Assembly (NCBI GenBank): GCA_034669905.1
Contig: JAXMOL010000076.1
Location: 1 to 24,906, forward strand
DNA from: Candidatus Hydrogenedentota bacterium
GTDB taxonomy: Bacteria > Hydrogenedentota > Hydrogenedentia > Hydrogenedentales > JAEUWI01
Reading direction: 5' to 3'
Length of the DNA stretch: 24,906 nucleotides
How positions within the stretch are numbered: position 1 is the stretch's first letter; each line of letters starts with the position of its first letter. The translations under genes and the position numbers were made by a program. The notes under the pieces are model-generated. The model was not told the DNA's origin. It saw only the letters and a list, made by a program, of their open reading frames with translations, and did not search any database. Positions 9,696 to 23,039 of this stretch are shown piece by piece.

Positions 9696-9724
9696 TTGAC
9701 AAGAATGTGGAAACAAGTGATTAT
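9696..9724 (+). promoter_or_regulatory. Candidate sigma-70 promoter for the signalling pair
   Basis: TTGACA (9696-9701), 17-bp spacer, GATTAT (9719-9724), in an AT-rich divergent intergenic region. Confidence 0.45.
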
Positions 9725-9881: not shown

Positions 9882-11528
9882 ATGAGTACTTCAAGCCACA
9901 TATTACTTGTCGACGACAATCTGCCAATCCTCCGCCTGTTGGAGGAAGTGCTTTCCGTATCTGGCCATAGCACCGAGTCCGCCTCCACGATCGCAGAGGC
10001 CCAATCCCTGCTGGAAAAGAGCACCTTCTGCTGCGCGCTCATTGATCTTGGGCTTCCAGACGGCAATGGACTCGACCTGCTGCCGGCTATCACATCCAAT
10101 CACCCCCTGCTGGTGCCCATTATTCTTACGGGCGATGGCCGCGCGGAAACGATTATCGAGACGATGCGTGCGGGTGCCTTCGATTTCCTGATCAAGCCCT
10201 TTGTGGCCGCCAACCTCCAGGCGGCCGTTAATCGTGCCGTGGACTACCACAATGTGCTGCGCGAACGAAACGAATTGATCCAACTGCTTTCCGAAGAACG
10301 CGAGCAGCTCAAGGCCCGCGTCGAGGAAGCCACCACGGATCTCCGTCAATATGCCAGCCATTGTGAATTGGTCAGTGCCCGGCTCCATTCCCTCGTGCGA
10401 TTGACCCAGGTCGCTTCCGAGCATTACACCGACGAACTCGTCTTTGAACGGATCGTGGAGGAGTTGGAGAAGTTTATCCCCCTCAAGTTCGTGGTCCTTC
10501 ACGCGACGACCAGCCTGGAATTCCTGTGCGCCCGCCGCGATCCCGATGGGCAGATACAGGTTATTGTGGTGGAGGGGGCGGAAAAGGCCCTTCCTAATGG
10601 CCAGTCCAATGGTGATATGGAGACCCGGCTGCGCGCGCTGGCGACCCACCACGCCGCCGTGGAAAGCGACGATGCGAAGATGTACCTCTATCCCCAGAGT
10701 TATTGGGGAAAGAATTCCTGCACGGTGGCCTTCCTGCTGGATGATGCCTTCGTGGTGGATGAGGATTGCGACCAGTTTCTGGGCATGTGTGCCCACTTTC
10801 TCGGTTTTGAATGGCAGGATGCCCGCCTCTCGCTCCATGCCACCCAGCAGGCGAGCCTGGGCAACATCGCCGTCGAAATCTCCAAGGGGCTGATTCAGGG
10901 ACTCACCGCAATACGAACCACCGCCGACTATGTGAGTGAAACGTCTGTCTCGACCGAGGCCATGGAAGGTCTCGACCGCATTCGGGGCAGCGTGGATAGT
11001 CTTCACAGCCGCATCAATGATTTCCGAATGCTTTCCCAGCCGCAGAAAGAGTCGGTGGCCACGGTTAATCTGACCGACTATCTCAACCAGGCGGTGGAAA
11101 TGCTGGGGAACGCGGTCCAGAATCGCAACATAACCATCGTCCGCCATTTTGAAGGCGAGAGTCCGTGTGTGCTCCTCAATGGCACCAGCGTCGCCCGCAC
11201 CGTGCTCGACCTTATATCCGCCACGATTCGCTCCGTGAAACTGGGTGGTGAAATCGCCCTGCGGGTCTCCGATGCGAAGCCCAATCACGTATTGGTGGAG
11301 ATCAGCCACGACATTGGCGCCTCCGAGTTGTTTGGGATTGAGCGGGATGAGCAGGCGCCCCAGGGCCCAGCCGTCGTGGAGAGTCACCCCCAGTTCATTC
11401 TGGCGCAGCGCACGCTGCAGCGCTGCGGGGGCCGTTTAATGCTACAATGCGAGAGTGAACTCCATCGGGCCTTTCATTTGATATTGCCCCGAAATCCGCT
11501 GGTGGAAATGAAGGAGTCAAAAGAATAA
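9882..11528 (+). CDS. Response regulator receiver fused to a coiled coil, a GAF-like region and a degenerate (pseudo) histidine kinase
   Basis: REC is intact: LLVDDN, IDLGLPDGNG, ILTG, FLIKPF. The C-terminal DHp/HATPase-like part (QASLGNIAVEISKGLIQGLTAI ... GGEIALRV ... VEISHDIG ... AQRTLQRCGGRL ... FHLILP) lacks the catalytic residues. Confidence 0.85.
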   Translation: MSTSSHILLVDDNLPILRLLEEVLSVSGHSTESASTIAEAQSLLEKSTFCCALIDLGLPDGNGLDLLPAITSNHPLLVPIILTGDGRAETIIETMRAGAFDFLIKPFVAANLQAAVNRAVDYHNVLRERNELIQLLSEEREQLKARVEEATTDLRQYASHCELVSARLHSLVRLTQVASEHYTDELVFERIVEELEKFIPLKFVVLHATTSLEFLCARRDPDGQIQVIVVEGAEKALPNGQSNGDMETRLRALATHHAAVESDDAKMYLYPQSYWGKNSCTVAFLLDDAFVVDEDCDQFLGMCAHFLGFEWQDARLSLHATQQASLGNIAVEISKGLIQGLTAIRTTADYVSETSVSTEAMEGLDRIRGSVDSLHSRINDFRMLSQPQKESVATVNLTDYLNQAVEMLGNAVQNRNITIVRHFEGESPCVLLNGTSVARTVLDLISATIRSVKLGGEIALRVSDAKPNHVLVEISHDIGASELFGIERDEQAPQGPAVVESHPQFILAQRTLQRCGGRLMLQCESELHRAFHLILPRNPLVEMKESKE

Positions 11529-11531
11529 CCC

Positions 11532-12923
11532 GTGAATAGAACTGCCGACATGCCGTTGACACAGCCTACCTCCAATGGGAAAGACTCCGGACAACGCCTC
11601 CTGGTGGTAGACACCGATCCCAGTGTGTGCTGGTCCCTCGAACGGGGACTTGCCCTCTCCGGGTATAGGGTGGTGTCTGTCAACAGTGCCTCCCAGGCCC
11701 TGACCCAGATCCGCGAAGAGCGATTTGCCGGGGTGCTCATGGAGATCATGCCGGAAGCCGGTCTGACGGTGGAAATCTTGTCGGAAATACTCGATCAGGA
11801 AGACCCCCCGAGTGTGGTGTGTGTCTCCATCGACGCCCCCCCACCCGTCGTGATCGATTGCATGCGCCGGGGCGCCACCGATTTCCTGGTGAAGCCATTC
11901 AGCCTCGCCGAAGTTCGTGCGGCGGTAGCCCGGGCCGTCGAGGTCGCCAAAGAGGCCCCCAAGAATTCTCTCGACGCCATCGAAGTGCCGCCGGATCAGG
12001 CTTCCTCCCTTCTCGTCGGCGTGAGCCAGCCCATGCAGGAGCTGCGCACCGTCATCAAGCAGGTGGCCCAGACCGACCTCAATTGCCTTATTCGTGGCCA
12101 GAGTGGTGCGGGCAAAGATGTCATCGCCCGGGAAATCCATCGCCTGTCCCGGCGTTCGGAAAAGCCCCTGATCAAGGTCAACTGCAGTGCCCTGCCCGAA
12201 CACTTGCTGGAAAGCGAATTGTTTGGCTATGAAAAGGGGGCCTTCACAGGTGCCATTACCGCCAAACCCGGTCGCTTCAGCCTGGCCGACAAAGGGGTCA
12301 TCTTTCTTGATGAGATCGGGGAAATGCACCCCAACCTGCAGGCCAAGCTCCTCCAGGTCATTGAACACAAGGAATTCACCAAGCTGGGGGGCCGCACGTC
12401 TATCAAAGTGGACGTTCAGATTATTGCGGCCACCAATGCCGATATTGACGCCATGACCAAAGATGGGCGCTTTCGCCAGGATCTCTATTTCCGGCTCAAT
12501 GAAGTCTGCATCTGGGCACCCGCGCTGAATACGCGTAAGGAAGACATTCCCCTGCTGGTAAAACACTTTGCCAACAAATACAGCAGCTTCGCCGGGGACC
12601 GACCCTTCAATATCACCGGGGAAGAGCTCACCGAGCTGGCCAACCGGGACTGGAATGGCAACGTGCGCGAGCTGGAAAGCACGATCAAGCGTTGGCTCGT
12701 TCTGGGCAAGGCCAACCTCGCCGGACCGCCTGTGCAGAAACCGGCACCTGCGGCCGCCGCCCCGGCAAGTCCACCACCGAAGCGCGATTTCACCCCGGAC
12801 GAAATCAGGATGGCCTTGGAACAGAATCAGTGGAATCGCCGTAAAGCGGCGGAGTCATTGAATATCAGCTACCAGGCCCTGCGCCGTCGCATCGAGAAGC
12901 ACAAGCTCGACCAGCCCCGTTGA
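11532..12923 (+). CDS. Sigma-54-dependent transcriptional activator (NtrC/Fis family) with atypical receiver
   Basis: Walker A GQSGAGKD, VNCSAL, ESELFGYEKGAFTGA, Walker B FLDEIGE, RQDLYFRLN, WNGNVREL and a Fis-type HTH (WNRRKAAESLNISYQALRRRI). Start is GTG 11532 or ATG 11550. Confidence 0.93.
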   Translation: MNRTADMPLTQPTSNGKDSGQRLLVVDTDPSVCWSLERGLALSGYRVVSVNSASQALTQIREERFAGVLMEIMPEAGLTVEILSEILDQEDPPSVVCVSIDAPPPVVIDCMRRGATDFLVKPFSLAEVRAAVARAVEVAKEAPKNSLDAIEVPPDQASSLLVGVSQPMQELRTVIKQVAQTDLNCLIRGQSGAGKDVIAREIHRLSRRSEKPLIKVNCSALPEHLLESELFGYEKGAFTGAITAKPGRFSLADKGVIFLDEIGEMHPNLQAKLLQVIEHKEFTKLGGRTSIKVDVQIIAATNADIDAMTKDGRFRQDLYFRLNEVCIWAPALNTRKEDIPLLVKHFANKYSSFAGDRPFNITGEELTELANRDWNGNVRELESTIKRWLVLGKANLAGPPVQKPAPAAAAPASPPPKRDFTPDEIRMALEQNQWNRRKAAESLNISYQALRRRIEKHKLDQPR

Positions 12924-12945: not shown

Positions 12946-13662
12946 TCACCCCGACACCAGGGCATCCTGAATCTCTTTCACTGCATTGTCGAGCCCGATA
13001 AACAGGGCACGGGCGATGATGTCGTGGCCGATATTGACCTCCCGCAGTCCGGGCAGCGCCACGATGGGCGCCAGATTCTGTGCGGTCAGCCCATGGCCCG
13101 CGTGAAAGGCCAGGGGCGTCTCCGCGATGTGCAACGCCGCCGTTTCCAGGCGCTTCAACTCCGCGGCAACTTCGGCACCCTGCGCGTTGGCGTAGGCACC
13201 GGTATGTAACTCCACGTAGTCTGCGCCGGTGGCCAGGCTGGCATCAATCTGTGCCACTTCGGGGTCGATAAACATGCTGACGTGAATGCCCTGGGCGTGC
13301 ATGCCCGAGACTACCTCCGTGAGCCACGCCTGCTGGCCGGCCACGTCCAACCCGCCTTCGGTGGTGATTTCTTCCCGGTTCTCCGGCACCAGGCACACCG
13401 TCGCCGGTTTGACCTGGTGGGCAATGGCGATCATCTCGTCGACGGCGGCCATTTCAAAATTCATTCGCACCTGAAGAGACTCGGCGAGGCCGTAGATATC
13501 CCGATCCTGAATGTGGCGGCGATCCTGCCGCAGGTGGACGGTTATCTGGTGGGCACCGGCGCGCTCGCAGACGGCAGCCGCCTCCAACACCGACGGAACG
13601 GCCCCTTTGCGGGCCTCCCGCAAGGTCGCCACGTGGTCAATATTCACGCCCAATTCAATCAC
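12946..13662 (-). CDS. pdxJ: Pyridoxine 5'-phosphate synthase
   Basis: LGVNIDHVATLREAR, ITVHLRQDRRHI, CLVPENREEITTEGGLDV, VELHTG, AGHGL, EVNIGH. Confidence 0.97.
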   Translation of the reverse strand: MIELGVNIDHVATLREARKGAVPSVLEAAAVCERAGAHQITVHLRQDRRHIQDRDIYGLAESLQVRMNFEMAAVDEMIAIAHQVKPATVCLVPENREEITTEGGLDVAGQQAWLTEVVSGMHAQGIHVSMFIDPEVAQIDASLATGADYVELHTGAYANAQGAEVAAELKRLETAALHIAETPLAFHAGHGLTAQNLAPIVALPGLREVNIGHDIIARALFIGLDNAVKEIQDALVSG

Positions 13663-13786
13663 GGAAACACCCTTTCAACCGCCGAAGCCTGTCACGTATC
13701 CTCTACGCCATGACACACCCGGCCCAATCATTCTACAAGAAAACAGGAGGATACCTCTCCCGTAGCCTATGCGCACCCATCAAGGG

Positions 13787-15130
13787 CTACAGGGCAGCGA
13801 CCTTTTCGGCCAATTGTTTTGTCAGGGTCCGGGCCGCCCGGGCATCCTGGTGTTGCACCATGACGCGCACAATGGGCTCTGTACCGGAGGGGCGAATGAC
13901 AACCCGCCCTTTGCCTTCGATTTCTTCGCGAATCTCGTCGACCAGGGCATCGAGGACTTCCTGCGCCGGCTTGGGCTTGTTGCCGAGGGGCACTTTCTGG
14001 TGGCTCTCGGGCATCTCCTGATACGCATGGGCCAGGCTGGCAAGGGATTGTTCCTTGCGGATAATAATCGCCAACACCTGCAACGCCGCGATAATGGCGT
14101 CACCGGTAGTGTTGTGCTCGAGAATAATCATGTGGCCGGAACTCTCGCCGCCCACGATCAGCCCCTGATCGCGCATGGCCTCCACGACGTAGCGGTCGCC
14201 CACCTGGGTATGGACCACCTTACCGCCATAGGGCTCGAGGGCCCGTGCCAGGCCGCCATTGGCCATAATGGTGGTCACGAGGGTGTTGTGCGGCAGGGCT
14301 TCACGCTCAAGGTAGTCAATACCAAGAATCGCCAGCAGGGCATTGCCATCCAACAGGCGGCCGTTACCATCGGCCATCACCAGGCGGTCCCCGTCCCCGT
14401 CAAAGGCGATACCCAAATCGGCGCGCTCGCGAATCACCATGGCGCGCATCTCTTCCGGATGGACCGAGCCCACCCCCTCGTTGATGTTCATGCCATCGGG
14501 GTCGTTGCCCAGGGCGATCACCTTGGCACCCAGCTCCCGAAGGGTGTTGGGCCCCGCCTTGTAGGTGGCCCCATTGGAACAGTCCACGACGATTTTCATG
14601 CCGTCGAGGCGCATACCCTTGGGGAACGAGGCCTTCACAAATTCGATATAGCGGCCTACGGCATCGTCAATACGGCGGGCGATGCCGATATCGGTGCCCG
14701 TCGGGGGATTGTCATCCACTTTGCCCGAGCGAATGAGCTTTTCAATTTCGTCTTCCACTTCGTCGGCAATTTTATAGCCATCCCGCCCGAAGAGTTTGAT
14801 GCCATTATCGGCATAGTCATTGTGGGAGGCCGAGATCATGATGGCCCCGTCGCAGCGCAGACTGCGCATGATGTAGGAGACACCGGGCGTAGGCAAGGGG
14901 CCGGTGAGGAGCACATTGATGCCCACGGAGCAAAGGCCTGCGGTCAGGGCGTTTTCCAGCATATAGCAGGAGCGACGGGTATCTTTGCCGATGAGAATCG
15001 TGTGGCGGCCACTGCCATTGCGAAAGAGGCGGCCTGCAGCGCGCCCGACCTGCAAGGCCATTTCTGCGGTCATCGGGTGAATATTGGCTTTTCCCCGAAT
15101 GCCATCCGTGCCGAAAAGGCGCTCTCCCAT
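13787..15130 (-). CDS. glmM: Phosphoglucosamine mutase
   Basis: LFGTDGIRG, IGKDTRRS, ISASHN (phosphoserine), DGDGDR, VGDRYV, GGESSGH, RPSGTEP. ATG 15130 has AAGGAG upstream. Confidence 0.96.
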   Translation of the reverse strand: MGERLFGTDGIRGKANIHPMTAEMALQVGRAAGRLFRNGSGRHTILIGKDTRRSCYMLENALTAGLCSVGINVLLTGPLPTPGVSYIMRSLRCDGAIMISASHNDYADNGIKLFGRDGYKIADEVEDEIEKLIRSGKVDDNPPTGTDIGIARRIDDAVGRYIEFVKASFPKGMRLDGMKIVVDCSNGATYKAGPNTLRELGAKVIALGNDPDGMNINEGVGSVHPEEMRAMVIRERADLGIAFDGDGDRLVMADGNGRLLDGNALLAILGIDYLEREALPHNTLVTTIMANGGLARALEPYGGKVVHTQVGDRYVVEAMRDQGLIVGGESSGHMIILEHNTTGDAIIAALQVLAIIIRKEQSLASLAHAYQEMPESHQKVPLGNKPKPAQEVLDALVDEIREEIEGKGRVVIRPSGTEPIVRVMVQHQDARAARTLTKQLAEKVAAL

Positions 15131-15241
15131 CCTACTCTCCTTTGTTCTGCGTTCGTTGCGCACACCGGGCGAATACGCCGGGATGCTACATAAAATCATT
15201 CAGGTGCCGGGGCGCGTCAATGCTTCGCCTCAAGCGCCACC

Positions 15242-16102
15242 TTATTCCGTCGGCCCGTGGAGAATCGCTTCGGTCATCCGAACGACCCGCGCCATGGCCC
15301 GCACATCGTGAACCCGCACGCATTGCACACCATGCAGCACGGACGCGGCCACCGTCGCGGCAGTCCCTTCCGTGCGGTCCTGCACGTCTACCGTCAAGAC
15401 GGCCCCAATGGTCGATTTATTCGACGTGCCGATGAGCACGGGCAATTCAAACTGCTGAAATGTGGCCAGTTCCCGCAATACGGTGAGATTATGCGCCACC
15501 GATTTGCCAAAACCAAATCCCGGGTCGAGCCAGATCTGCTCCCGGGCCATGCCGGCCGCCAGCGCAGCATCAATACGTTCCTCAAAAAAAGCCATAATCT
15601 CCGACACCACATCCCCATAGGCCGGTGCCTGCTGCATGGTCTGGGGCGTGCCCTGCATGTGCATCAATACACAGGGGCATCCCGCCGCGGCCATACACCC
15701 GGCCATGTCCGGGTCGTGTCGCAGGGCACTGATGTCGTTGATGAGGGTAGCGCCAACTTCCAGCGCCCGCCGTGCCGTGGACGCATGGTACGTGTCCACC
15801 GAGATGGGCACGGGCGCATCCTGCAGCATTTCCAGGACCGGCACCAGCCGCAACCACTCCTCCTCTTCGCTGAGGGGAGCCGCGCCGGGACGGGAGGATT
15901 CGGCCCCCAGGTCGAGCACGTCCGCGCCTTCTTCAATCAGTCGGTGGGCATGGTCTACCGCGCGCTGGGGCGTATCAAACTGGCCCCCGTCAAAAAAGGA
16001 GTCGGGCGTCAGGTTCACCACCCCCATCACCAGCACACGTTTCCGCGCACGCACCGGGGCGGCATACCAGGGACGGTAGTGTGCCATCGGATCATCCATC
16101 AT
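15242..16102 (-). CDS. folP: Dihydropteroate synthase
   Basis: MGVVNLTPDSF, GAESSRPG, ISVDT, INDIS, LMHMQGTP, LDPGFGFGK, VRVHDV; conserved ftsH-folP-glmM synteny. Confidence 0.95.
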   Translation of the reverse strand: MMDDPMAHYRPWYAAPVRARKRVLVMGVVNLTPDSFFDGGQFDTPQRAVDHAHRLIEEGADVLDLGAESSRPGAAPLSEEEEWLRLVPVLEMLQDAPVPISVDTYHASTARRALEVGATLINDISALRHDPDMAGCMAAAGCPCVLMHMQGTPQTMQQAPAYGDVVSEIMAFFEERIDAALAAGMAREQIWLDPGFGFGKSVAHNLTVLRELATFQQFELPVLIGTSNKSTIGAVLTVDVQDRTEGTAATVAASVLHGVQCVRVHDVRAMARVVRMTEAILHGPTE

Positions 16103-16143
16103 GCCGAGCCATTCTCCCGCAACGGGTATAGGAGCATTCAGAC

Positions 16144-18132
<1,989 letters not shown>

Positions 18133-19827: not shown

Positions 19828-20238
19828 GGACTCCCTGGAGTGCGTAAGCTTGCTTACGCTTTCAACGAGCAAGCTTGCTTGCGGTGGACACAGGTACACT
19901 CCCCCTGAACAACGAGCACCCCCCGTGTACCCAACGCGGCTGGATCACCACAACGTTTCCCGGTGTGGGCGGGGAGCAAGCTCCCCAGATCAGGGTAGCA
20001 GCAAGCTGCCACACGCCAAAGAGTCCCCCAGCGCGAAAACGCATACGCCCTGGAGTGCGTAAGCTTGCTTACGCTTTCAACGAGCAAGCTTGCTTGCGGT
20101 GGACACAGACGCACCACCCGACAACAAAGGCACCCGCGCTTACCCATCGCGCCCCGTTCAGCACGACGTCCACCTCCGTGGGCGAGGAGCAAGCTCCCCG
20201 GGGAAAGGTAGCAGCAAGCTGCCACACGCCAAAGAGTC
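19828..20238 (+). repeat. REP/REPIN-like family A tandem array (units 19836-20018 and 20051-20231)
   Basis: 215-bp period with the same four hairpins as the array at 14-480; the two cores are clearly divergent from each other. Confidence 0.9.
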
Positions 20239-20302
20239 GCCTATGGACAGTTTCTTCGGCGACATGAAACGCTGCCGGGCAACCCCCATTCTCCCCTACA
20301 AG

Positions 20303-21679: not shown

Positions 21680-21743
21680 GGTGATTTTCTTCCCGGCGCA
21701 GGGCGCGCGTTGTTGTATTGCGGTATGAAACAGGCGGACCTAT

Positions 21744-21773
21744 AGGATACCGAGACGACGCGGATGCCTGCAA
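21744..21773 (-). promoter_or_regulatory. Candidate promoter for the aminotransferase gene
   Basis: Minus strand TTGCAG, 18-bp spacer, TATCCT. Confidence 0.35.
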
Positions 21774-21786
21774 TGTTTTACACGGG

Positions 21787-22244
21787 TGGCGGGAAGCTGC
21801 CACACACCAGAGAGTCGCGTACGCTGAAACAGACCCACCCTCTGGAGTGCGTAAGCTTGCTTACGCTTTTACTCAGCAAGCTTGCTTGCGCCGGACACAG
21901 GTACGCCACCGCAGTAAAAGAGTTCCTCCCGTGTACCCAGCGCGACCGCTTCCCCACTTCATTCGCCAACGTATGTGGGGAGCAAGCTCCCCAGATAACG
22001 GTAGCAGCAAGCTGCCACACTCCAGAGAATCGCGTACGCTGAAACAGACCCACCCTCTGGAGTGCGTAAGCTTGCTTACGCTTTTACTCAGCAAGCTTGC
22101 TTGCGCCGGACACAGGTACGCCACCGCAGAAAAAGAGTTCCTCCCGTGTACCCAGCGCGACCGCTTCCCCACTTCATTCGCCAACGTATGTGGGGAGCAA
22201 GCTCCCCAGATAACGGTAGCAGCAAGCTGCCACACTCCAGAGAG
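21787..22244 (+). repeat. REP/REPIN-like family A tandem array (remnant right arm, then units 21843-22024 and 22058-22239)
   Basis: 215-bp period; the two 182-bp units are nearly identical; terminal TCTGGAGTG...CACTCCAGA inverted repeat. Confidence 0.92.
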
Positions 22245-22271
22245 TTCGCTTCAAATAATTTAATCCCCCGA

Positions 22272-23039
22272 TCACTCGTGGGGCATGGGCACGTAGCGTT
22301 CTGCCACGGCCTCGTGGAGTGCCGCCGCCAAGACCTTTCGATTCATCCCGCCGATGGGCTCCTCCCCAAAATAGAGTGTCGCCGTAAATCCGGGGTATCG
22401 CAGTAGGCGCCGCATGTGCGCGAAAAATGCTTCGGGTCGCCACCACCCGATGATGTGGGAAGCCAGGGGCGAGGTGTCAGGCGTCTCATAATTAATGGTT
22501 ACATAATGAATCGGCACCCCATTGTCGATGGCCGGTTGAATGAGCGCTGACTTGAAGGGAGCCACGGCGAGCCCGCGGGAAATGCGACTCTCGGCAAAGA
22601 CCACGAGACCGTCGTCTTGTTCGAGGGTGTGGGCAATGAGGTCGTTCACCCGCACCGCATCCTGCCGCTGCTCCCGGTCGATAAACAGGACATGGAGCGA
22701 GCGGGCCACCCAACCAATGACAGGCCAGTGCTTCACATCGCCCCGGGCCACAAAAGTACACCCCAACACGGCAGACAAGAGGAAGATATCGAGATAACTC
22801 AGGTGATTCGCCACCAAGTAATAAGGGGGCTTGGGCAGGGGCCCCACGATAACAACCCGCATGCCCGCGAGTCGCCTGAAGCCCTGCCCCCACATGCGCA
22901 CAAGCCACCGCCGCCAACGCCGATCATGCACCTCGGAAAAACGGGTAAAGAGCCCCACGAATATGCGTAAGAACCACGCCAACGCTGTCCACAAAAGGAG
23001 CAAGGGAAAGCGAATGCCACTCTGCAACGTCTCGTACAC
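22272..23039 (-). CDS. Lysophospholipid acyltransferase (PlsC / OlsA-like)
   Basis: NHLSYLD (HX4D), FVARGDVKHWPVIG, FIDR, VFAESR, PFKSAL. GTG 23039 is preceded by GGAGG. Confidence 0.88.
   Translation of the reverse strand: MYETLQSGIRFPLLLLWTALAWFLRIFVGLFTRFSEVHDRRWRRWLVRMWGQGFRRLAGMRVVIVGPLPKPPYYLVANHLSYLDIFLLSAVLGCTFVARGDVKHWPVIGWVARSLHVLFIDREQRQDAVRVNDLIAHTLEQDDGLVVFAESRISRGLAVAPFKSALIQPAIDNGVPIHYVTINYETPDTSPLASHIIGWWRPEAFFAHMRRLLRYPGFTATLYFGEEPIGGMNRKVLAAALHEAVAERYVPMPHE

Follow-up and report, generated by a model that had tools for sequence, protein, structure and literature searches.

RetS is a histidine pseudokinase that acts by binding, its partner being the kinase GacS. PsmA of Streptomyces is likewise a histidine pseudokinase that acts by binding, its partner being DivIVA and not a pseudo-receiver activator (PMC12963549). 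In Azotobacter vinelandii, NifL is a kinase-inactive histidine kinase homologue that is co-expressed with the sigma-54 activator NifA and binds it stoichiometrically (PMC12998190). In Caulobacter, the pseudokinase DivL has had its phosphorylatable histidine replaced and has kept the surface on which the regulator DivK docks (PMC5361649). Here we describe a pair of adjacent genes at positions 9882–12923 of a stretch of 24,906 nucleotides (nt; positions 1–24,906 of contig JAXMOL010000076.1, GCA_034669905.1) from a Candidatus Hydrogenedentota bacterium; the whole stretch is referred to below as the window. Gene 1 encodes a receiver-controlled pseudo-histidine kinase (protein 1) and gene 2 encodes a sigma-54 activator whose receiver carries glutamate at the acceptor site (protein 2). 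Judged by its sequences, the pair is an old, selected system and not a product of decay. It would work like NifL–NifA, reuse a docking site as DivL does and fill the place of a third system, PrsK–PrsR, and it is a member of neither NifL–NifA nor PrsK–PrsR.

The likeness to each of these systems is partial. NifL has PAS/FAD as its sensor and a GHKL domain that binds ADP, whereas protein 1 has a receiver and a GAF-like domain as inputs and no nucleotide-binding motifs; moreover NifL grips the AAA+ domain of NifA, which has a GAF domain and no receiver, whereas the predicted handle in the pair is the Glu pseudo-receiver, held at the DHp site (PMC12998190). DivL, whose structure 4q20 matched protein 1 in both structure and profile searches, has Tyr at the His site and reads a phosphorylated regulator, whereas protein 1 has Lys or Arg and its docked receiver cannot be phosphorylated, though it may have a further partner; the flow in Caulobacter runs from regulator to DivL, whereas in the pair it would run from pseudokinase to activator (PMC5361649). 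RetS structures were also among the PDB matches of protein 1, the top structural match being LvrB of Leptospira (8vc9). LvrB unites a receiver, a signalling coiled coil, a DHp and a catalytic fold in one chain as protein 1 does, but it autophosphorylates and passes the phosphate to LvrC, which protein 1 cannot do, and the GAF-like insert is peculiar to protein 1 in this comparison (PMC13269768). PrsK–PrsR resembles the pair in its sigma-54 control over PEP-CTERM genes, in using an upstream box and in its linkage to exosortase, tetratricopeptide repeat (TPR) and exopolysaccharide (EPS) genes; PrsK is however an active transmembrane kinase, PrsR is canonical and both belong to Proteobacteria, whereas protein 1 is soluble and dead (PMC1569441, PMC9850573).

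Protein 2 can be compared with aspartate-less receivers such as CmrT, which also have Glu at the acceptor position and an altered acidic pocket (PMC12632262, PMC4395418). Glu is the commonest substitute at this position in pseudo-receivers, and the idea that it acts as a phosphomimic has in certain cases been refuted (PMC12632262). How pseudo-receivers switch on and off was called a mystery in the same 2025 review, mostly because those that have been studied are orphans: only 2 of the 20 atypical regulators surveyed were not, and their on/off mechanisms were described as unknown (PMC12632262). Protein 2 differs from the surveyed regulators in having a dedicated, co-degenerate partner with a kinase fold. 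The first-pass annotation of this DNA, made from the sequence alone, had stated that no system with such a combination had been described. This was too strong, for NifL–NifA is already a dead histidine kinase homologue that binds a sigma-54 activator (PMC12998190); what appears to be new is the route of control through a Glu pseudo-receiver. No account of this pair, or of any pseudokinase with a Glu-receiver sigma-54 activator, was found in a literature search that left subscription journals mostly uncovered and excluded supplements.

Architecture of the two proteins

Gene 1 (P0001; 9882..11528, stop codon TAA at 11526) encodes 548 amino acids (aa), and gene 2 (P0002; 11532..12923) encodes 463 aa; both genes, and all features within them, lie on the plus strand. 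Gene 2 starts either at GTG 11532, which leaves 3 nt between the genes, or at ATG 11550, which leaves 21 nt. Conservation was studied across 135 genomes of the phylum Ca. Hydrogenedentota, with residue tallies from 57 of the 67 genomes that have protein 1 and 54 of the 65 that have protein 2; one N-terminally cut protein was left out of the conservation counts.

Protein 1 begins with a receiver (aa 6–121, 9897..10244; Pfam Response_reg, E 2.5e-19) in which D11/D12, D55 (GAT 10044), T83 and K105 are all present. D12, D55, T83 and K105 are found in 50 of 50 orthologues, as is D or E at position 11. From the receiver runs a long helix or coiled coil (aa 109–180, 10206..10421; predicted fold), and the stretch at aa 122–180 has the highest mean conservation of any region of the protein (0.69). 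Between this coiled coil and the DHp-like helices sits a putative GAF-like alpha/beta domain, absent from the first-pass description, which is placed at about aa 184–315 (10431..10826) by its predicted fold and by its look-alikes, GAF-kinase clusters at 0.94–0.97; a Pfam scan of protein 1 gave no GAF family match. The full-length model of protein 1 was a monomer with a predicted template modelling score (pTM) of 0.41, and its domain arrangement is not trusted.

The C-terminal half has the form of a kinase without its chemistry. In the DHp-like helical hairpin (aa 322–388, 10845..11045), alignment to canonical kinases places K335 (AAG, 10884–10886) at the phospho-His position, G336 at the acidic position H+1 and Q339 at H+4. 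Position 335 is Arg in 35, Lys in 21 and Gln in one of the 57 genomes, so that 56/57 have a basic residue, compared with His in 110/112 canonical kinases of the same alignment; H+1 is N, G or S in 52/57 and Q339 is kept in 51/57. The degenerate HATPase-like fold that follows (aa 392–537, 11055..11492) has lost its N, G1 and G2 boxes, with both N-box Asn residues, the G1 Asp and the G2 glycines all replaced: position 443 of the N-box is Asp, not Asn, in 54/57 genomes, position 447 is Asn in only 2/57 and the G1 Asp is present in none (0/57). Pfam HisKA scored 18.2 bits on protein 1, under its cut-off of 26.9, and the Pfam scan gave no HATPase_c match. The DHp plus HATPase fold was nevertheless recognised by both profile and structure searches, a profile of residues 295–540 aligning with solved HisKA kinases (ZraS, E 3.8e-15).

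Certain residues of the dead ATP fold are near-invariant (C429, N433, R439, D443, R450, P503, A508, R510 and C515, between 11166 and 11411), and together they may make up a new surface to which a ligand or the AAA+ domain binds.

In protein 2, the pseudo-receiver (aa 23–137, 11598..11942) has D27-T28-D29, W34 in helix 1, E71 (GAG 11742–11744), S99 and K121. The acidic pocket reads VVDTD, so that T28 occupies the second acidic position, and S99 and K121 are retained. Across the orthologues E71 and D29 are invariant (each 54/54), W34 is found in 53/54 and position 28 is acidic in none. Since 114 of the 118 receiver domains found in the window's genome have Asp at the acceptor position, and Glu is universal among the orthologues, the Glu of protein 2 is not a chance substitution. 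The rest of the protein is that of an ordinary activator. The AAA+ sigma-54 interaction domain (12015..12713; Pfam Sigma54_activat, E 5.5e-67) has Walker A, GAFTGA, Walker B, an arginine finger and sensor II, which were matched by pattern in 51, 51, 48, 50 and 50 of 51 orthologues, respectively. The Fis-type helix-turn-helix (HTH; WNRRKAA...SY..LRRRI; 12801..12899; Pfam HTH_8, E 2.2e-8) is of a type that, within the window's genome, is shared only with one receiver-less paralogue (G000:C15:75552-76604). The first-pass annotation had read the same picture from the single sequence, namely two genes 3–21 bp apart, a fully canonical receiver and an apparently dead kinase fold in protein 1, and in protein 2 an acceptor Asp changed to Glu (GAG at 11742) with an altered acidic pocket but an intact AAA+/GAFTGA/HTH; all of this is confirmed.

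Distribution and selection

The dead kinase region is found in 67/135 genomes and the Glu receiver in 65/135. Both genes are present in 63 genomes and neither in 66, with protein 1 alone in four and protein 2 alone in two; three of the four protein-1-only genes stop at a contig edge, and one of the two protein-2-only genes begins at one. Where both are present they are adjacent on one contig in 62 of 63 genomes. It had been suggested that orthologous pairs be compared for joint loss of the His, N and G boxes and of the acceptor Asp, on the view that orthologues lying apart or carrying canonical residues would speak for recent decay. The comparison gave the opposite: the losses go together across the phylum, with His lost in 57/57 and Glu present in 54/54. 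No orthologue examined has both the His and the ATP boxes, and none has the acceptor Asp.

A profile search of 1.84 billion representatives recovered 32 proteins at E up to 1e-30 and a few fragments, followed by ordinary kinases; the family of protein 1 comprises about 35 clusters, separated by a gap from ordinary kinases, and no intact ancestor was found in this search. The close relatives P0177 and P0184 come from Candidatus Hydrogenedentes. Among the 80 matches listed, at least three were full-length, receiver matches making up the bulk of the others, and those three were deposited under Nitrospirales titles.

Both proteins have been under purifying selection. The ratio of nonsynonymous to synonymous substitution rates (dN/dS) in the dead kinase region was 0.025–0.05 in all six measurable pairs (a seventh was saturated), and in the pseudo-receiver of protein 2 it was 0.04–0.16 in four pairs. 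The same substitutions occur across eight families of the order. Because the protein 1 receiver is intact in every orthologue and dN/dS is low, one phosphorylation site has been selected whilst the His-to-Asp step has gone at both ends, and phosphate transfer from a His of protein 1 to an Asp of protein 2 almost certainly does not take place. Recent decay of an ordinary two-component pair has a small number of damaged genes in its favour, with gene 2 frameshifted in one genome (G132, L140:7441-8692) and gene 1 interrupted by a stop in another (G072, C3:3860-4393). Set against the low dN/dS and the substitutions shared by eight families, it is ruled out with a confidence approaching certainty.

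The frameshift in G132 and the stop in G072 may be assembly errors. The same holds for P0170, a 791-aa open reading frame (ORF) in which protein 2 is fused with the C-terminal half of protein 1; it was seen on one contig, is N-terminally cut and was not counted.

Predicted docking of the pseudo-receiver

Helix 1 of a receiver is its kinase-docking helix. In the pseudo-receiver of protein 2 this helix has a conservation of 0.81, the highest of the receiver helices of that protein (others 0.41–0.71). The complex was modelled with two copies of protein 1 (residues 295–540) and one pseudo-receiver, the AAA+ domain being excluded. The pseudo-receiver was placed on the DHp of protein 1 with an interface score (ipSAE) of 0.62, compared with 0.00 for the best of three controls; the mark used for this score was reached by 116/157 solved complexes and by 2/215 mismatched pairs, a calibration that holds only roughly for this complex. 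At least 94% of contacts were shared between runs, and the predicted local distance difference test (pLDDT) of the partner was at least 87. The modelled interface sets K335, I338–A343 and R345–T347 of protein 1 opposite T28, D29, W34 and K121–A126 of protein 2, extending roughly over K335 and 338–353 in the one and T28, D29, helix 1 and 121–128 in the other. Positions in the predicted interface have a conservation of 0.81, compared with 0.61 elsewhere, and the predicted geometry is that of ordinary kinase–regulator docking with a Glu-receiver on a dead DHp. Direct docking of the two proteins is probable. It had been proposed that the pair lost phosphotransfer jointly but kept the docking of receiver on DHp: the joint loss and the conserved docking helix are borne out, and the docking itself is predicted by the model.

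Two genomes in which one partner is missing bear on this prediction. In G134 (100% complete; L135:6986-8629) protein 1 is present whilst protein 2 and its paralogue EBP-B are absent, and this protein 1 is the sole one of 57 without Lys or Arg at position 335, which is Gln. It keeps 4 of 20 interface residues, fewer than any paired member (paired minimum 0.33), whereas the non-interface residues of its DHp are kept in 21/50, within the paired range (paired minimum 0.41). G044 (93% complete; L155:6734-8326) has a motor-intact protein 2, adjoining an EPS sugar transferase gene and a PEP-CTERM gene, and no protein 1 was found there. This is the only orthologue that lacks W34.

A putative PEP-CTERM and exopolysaccharide regulon

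The neighbourhood of the pair was surveyed in 41 loci from other genomes and in the window. Recurrent neighbours were a small coiled-coil/GGDEF-like gene that diverges from gene 1 (23 loci), PEP-CTERM genes (20, spread over 17 loci) and an EPS sugar transferase gene (seven loci); no third receiver gene was conserved near the pair in these loci. Across the 135 genomes, a full-length exosortase (E up to 1e-30) and the pair were both present in 59 and both absent in 59. The window's genome has 27 PEP-CTERM genes, rpoN and 23 sigma-54 activators. With site weights taken from the consensus, a sigma-54 site was found upstream of 17/26 PEP-CTERM genes (one short upstream region being left out), compared with 91/1743 background regions.

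Upstream of these sigma-54 sites the spaced word TCA-N4-TGA was found in 12/18 cases, compared with 33/900, and was top of 135 spaced words. The box is a palindrome, (T/G)TCA-N4-TGA(C/A), often TTGTCA-N4-TGACAA, and lies about 85–170 nt upstream of the sigma-54 sites. Matrices for box and sigma-54 site, built from the window's genome alone, were then applied to the other genomes, where both elements precede 19/23 of the small genes divergent from gene 1 (with a spacing of 105–108 in 18) and 11 of the 20 PEP-CTERM genes near the pair. A strict form of the pattern occurs in 51/69 genomes with the pair and 9/66 without it, and its reversed control in 7/135. The TGTCA-N4-TGACA box is previously undescribed. 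The motif of PrsR, compared by its description and not from its logo, is 17 nt long and ends in TTTACA (PMC1569441).

Membership of PrsK–PrsR can be rejected. No protein in the window's genome scored above the cut-offs of the PrsK–PrsR models TIGR02915 and TIGR02916: protein 2 scored 298 against a cut-off of 502.6, where the genome's best was 439.5, and the best PrsK candidate scored 102 against 300. The box motif differs as well. From motifs, profiles and neighbours, the likely output of the pair is a regulon of PEP-CTERM, exosortase and exopolysaccharide genes, and protein 2 probably acts on the promoters that carry the box. The first-pass annotation had passed over both this regulon and the receiver-less paralogue.

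The pair itself has a candidate promoter of another kind. Upstream of gene 1 lies a candidate sigma-70-like promoter (TTGACA-17-GATTAT; 9696..9724, plus strand) with 10/12 consensus matches, which is weak taken alone, as the shuffled region gives 1.2 such sites on average. Similar sites were found in 15/58 upstream rows across genomes (some genomes being duplicated, and two short upstream regions left out), and a box with a sigma-54 site faces gene 1 in only 2/58 rows, both from one genome.

The paralogue EBP-B and small GGDEF-like proteins

EBP-B (G000:C15:75552-76604) is a receiver-less sigma-54 activator with a complete motor. In a tree that took in five orthologues and 22 of the 23 activators of the genome, it is sister to protein 2 with support of 99/95, and it shares its WNRRKAA type of HTH; the recognition helices differ (SYQALRRRI in protein 2, SYSSLLRRI in EBP-B). 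It heads an operon (G000:C15:63382-77634) of polysaccharide export, Wzc-like kinase, TPR, exosortase, EpsI, TPR and cyclic nucleoside monophosphate (cNMP)-like genes, and is found in 66/135 genomes, 61 of which have the pair. In genomes other than the one from which the matrices were built, the EBP-B promoter carries the box and a sigma-54 site in 17/29 operons (0/145 in shuffles). Because EBP-B has a box-bearing promoter and the pair a sigma-70-like one, the promoters suggest a cascade that protein 2 starts and in which EBP-B lies downstream.

Two families of small GGDEF-like proteins accompany the two activators. Type A (L169:4667-5227; 23 loci) diverges from gene 1 and was not found in the window's genome; type B (L159:9962-10420 and G000:C15:77260-77628) diverges from EBP-B. 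Neither has a GGDEF motif, and both carry RxxD at the position of the inhibitory site for cyclic di-GMP (c-di-GMP) in all rows (23/23 and 22/22, one genome counted twice). Both are under promoters with box and sigma-54 site. It is possible that they are feedback regulators that read c-di-GMP.

A proposed hold-and-release switch and its rivals

The model that best accommodates these results, one that we consider evenly poised between right and wrong, is a hold-and-release switch of the NifL kind whose input is the phosphorylated receiver of protein 1. It starts from what the sequences display, namely that the normal His-to-Asp route is impossible and that both proteins are under purifying selection and inherited together. 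The DHp of a protein 1 dimer is predicted to grip helix 1 and the beta5–alpha5 loop of the pseudo-receiver. Phosphorylation of D55 would, by analogy with LvrB, re-wind the coiled coil and shift the DHp; the GAF-like domain may supply a second input. Binding would hold the activator inactive, as with NifL, and phosphorylation of D55 would likely alter the grip. Free protein 2 on the TGTCA-N4-TGACA box would then fire sigma-54 promoters, as motif, profile and synteny suggest, the targets being PEP-CTERM surface proteins, two small GGDEF-like proteins and the operon for exopolysaccharide and exosortase; EBP-B, which heads that operon, would amplify the response.

Inhibition of protein 2 by binding is somewhat favoured over activation, the analogy with NifL apart, because in G044 a protein 2 with its motor intact persists in the absence of protein 1 and because EBP-B has no receiver. 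The same docking could have the opposite sign, with protein 1 pushing an otherwise inactive protein 2 into its active form once its receiver is phosphorylated. The co-selection and the docking evidence fit this equally well, the pseudo-receiver no longer has its Mg site, so that Glu alone need not activate, and in LvrB the kinase goes over to its output state when the receiver is phosphorylated (PMC13269768). What speaks against it is indirect: no protein 1 was found in one genome (G044) whose protein 2 stands by PEP-CTERM and EPS genes, and the sister of protein 2, EBP-B, works without any receiver. We consider activation of this kind unlikely, though it is the strongest of the rivals. Somewhat less likely again is that the box is read mainly by EBP-B, protein 2 having other targets or acting only in a mixed hexamer with EBP-B, in the manner of HrpR/HrpS, which act as a mixed hexamer; the pair would then tune that heteromer. 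EBP-B is widespread (66/135) and heads the EPS/exosortase operon, its recognition helix differs from that of protein 2, and box promoters occur in four of five genomes that have EBP-B without the pair (in G123 a cut protein 2 lies at a contig end, and three of the five are less than 90% complete). Yet the promoter of EBP-B bears the box itself and that of gene 1 does not, so another activator should start the loop; box promoters are also present in six of eight mostly fragmented genomes with the pair and no EBP-B match, and boxes lie directly beside the pair in many genomes.

A separation of the two proteins, in which protein 1 is a dedicated phosphatase or phosphate sensor for some phosphorylatable receiver (its own or that of another regulator), protein 2 is constitutive, with its amount or a ligand as the control, and the operon is a matter of history, is the least probable of these alternatives. 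Asn or Thr at H+4 serves phosphatase activity in HisKA kinases and can work without the His, and protein 1 keeps Gln there in most genomes. DivL, which senses phosphorylated DivK, gives a precedent (PMC5361649). This leaves unexplained the conserved docking helix of the pseudo-receiver, the near-perfect co-occurrence of the two proteins and the fact that in G134, where protein 1 has no partner, interface residues of its DHp have been lost.

Several points weigh against the hold-and-release model and its parts. Solved kinase–regulator pairs resemble the modelled complex, so that the score may stem from pairs already known to the modelling program and reflect likeness and not binding; the docking controls included no non-cognate receiver, and the complex differed from the calibration set. 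E71 is absent from the confident contacts, so that a K335–E71 salt bridge is neither supported nor excluded. The loss of W34 in G044 is weak as evidence on the interface because that protein has diverged throughout (9/18 interface and 43/95 other positions match), and the argument for inhibition rests on single genomes. A few members of the family carry His, Gln or Asn at position 335 (P0027, P0019, P0026 and P0032), likewise without ATP boxes; P0027 is the one with His, and a search for its contig gave 11 matches, all confined to the receiver. Helix 1 of the receiver of protein 1 (9918–9962), its kinase-docking helix, has the lowest conservation of that receiver (0.39), whilst the active site is invariant, and no candidate input kinase stood out among the 79 kinase-like ORFs counted in the genome, for which no profile search was made; the receiver may take its phosphate from a small-molecule donor or from input kinases that change. 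As for the output, a full-length exosortase match is missing from ten genomes with the pair and present in seven that lack it, the genomes are kin, and one family supplies many of the loci that have PEP-CTERM neighbours. In G021 (98% complete), EBP-B, boxes and the EPS operon are present and neither gene of the pair was found, so that EBP-B is probably able to read the box in the absence of protein 2 as well; the recognition helices of the two activators differ at two positions.

The hold-and-release model can be extended into a fuller history, which we put forward tentatively and would not yet call probable. In this, a complete two-component pair would have been turned throughout the phylum into a phosphate-free switch, with a basic residue in place of His and Glu in place of Asp, a transient complex being made stable and switched through the receiver of protein 1; independently, it would have taken over the PEP-CTERM/exosortase/EPS regulon from PrsK–PrsR with a new box, a receiver-less amplifier paralogue and two RxxD feedback proteins that may read c-di-GMP. 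If true, kinase–regulator docking has outlived its chemistry, and sigma-54 activators have come under NifL-like control by a second, independent route. For the study of pseudo-receivers the pair brings together a partner of their own, an interface predicted by modelling, D55 as a defined input residue and promoters as a read-out, and its proteins are soluble. It also gives a likely regulator and a box to the PEP-CTERM/EPS genes (floc, biofilm) outside Proteobacteria, which were left open by PMC1569441.

Other features of the window

Downstream of the pair, on the minus strand (12946–18132), are convergent genes that we take to resemble pdxJ, glmM, folP and ftsH and that are not part of the system. 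At 654–1292, also on the minus strand, is a secreted-looking protein of 212 aa without a Pfam family. Translations of the intergenic regions at about 150–630, 19850–20270 and 21720–22450 repeat the same short motifs, which suggests a family of repeated extragenic elements, arranged in tandem at 21.7–22.4 kb.

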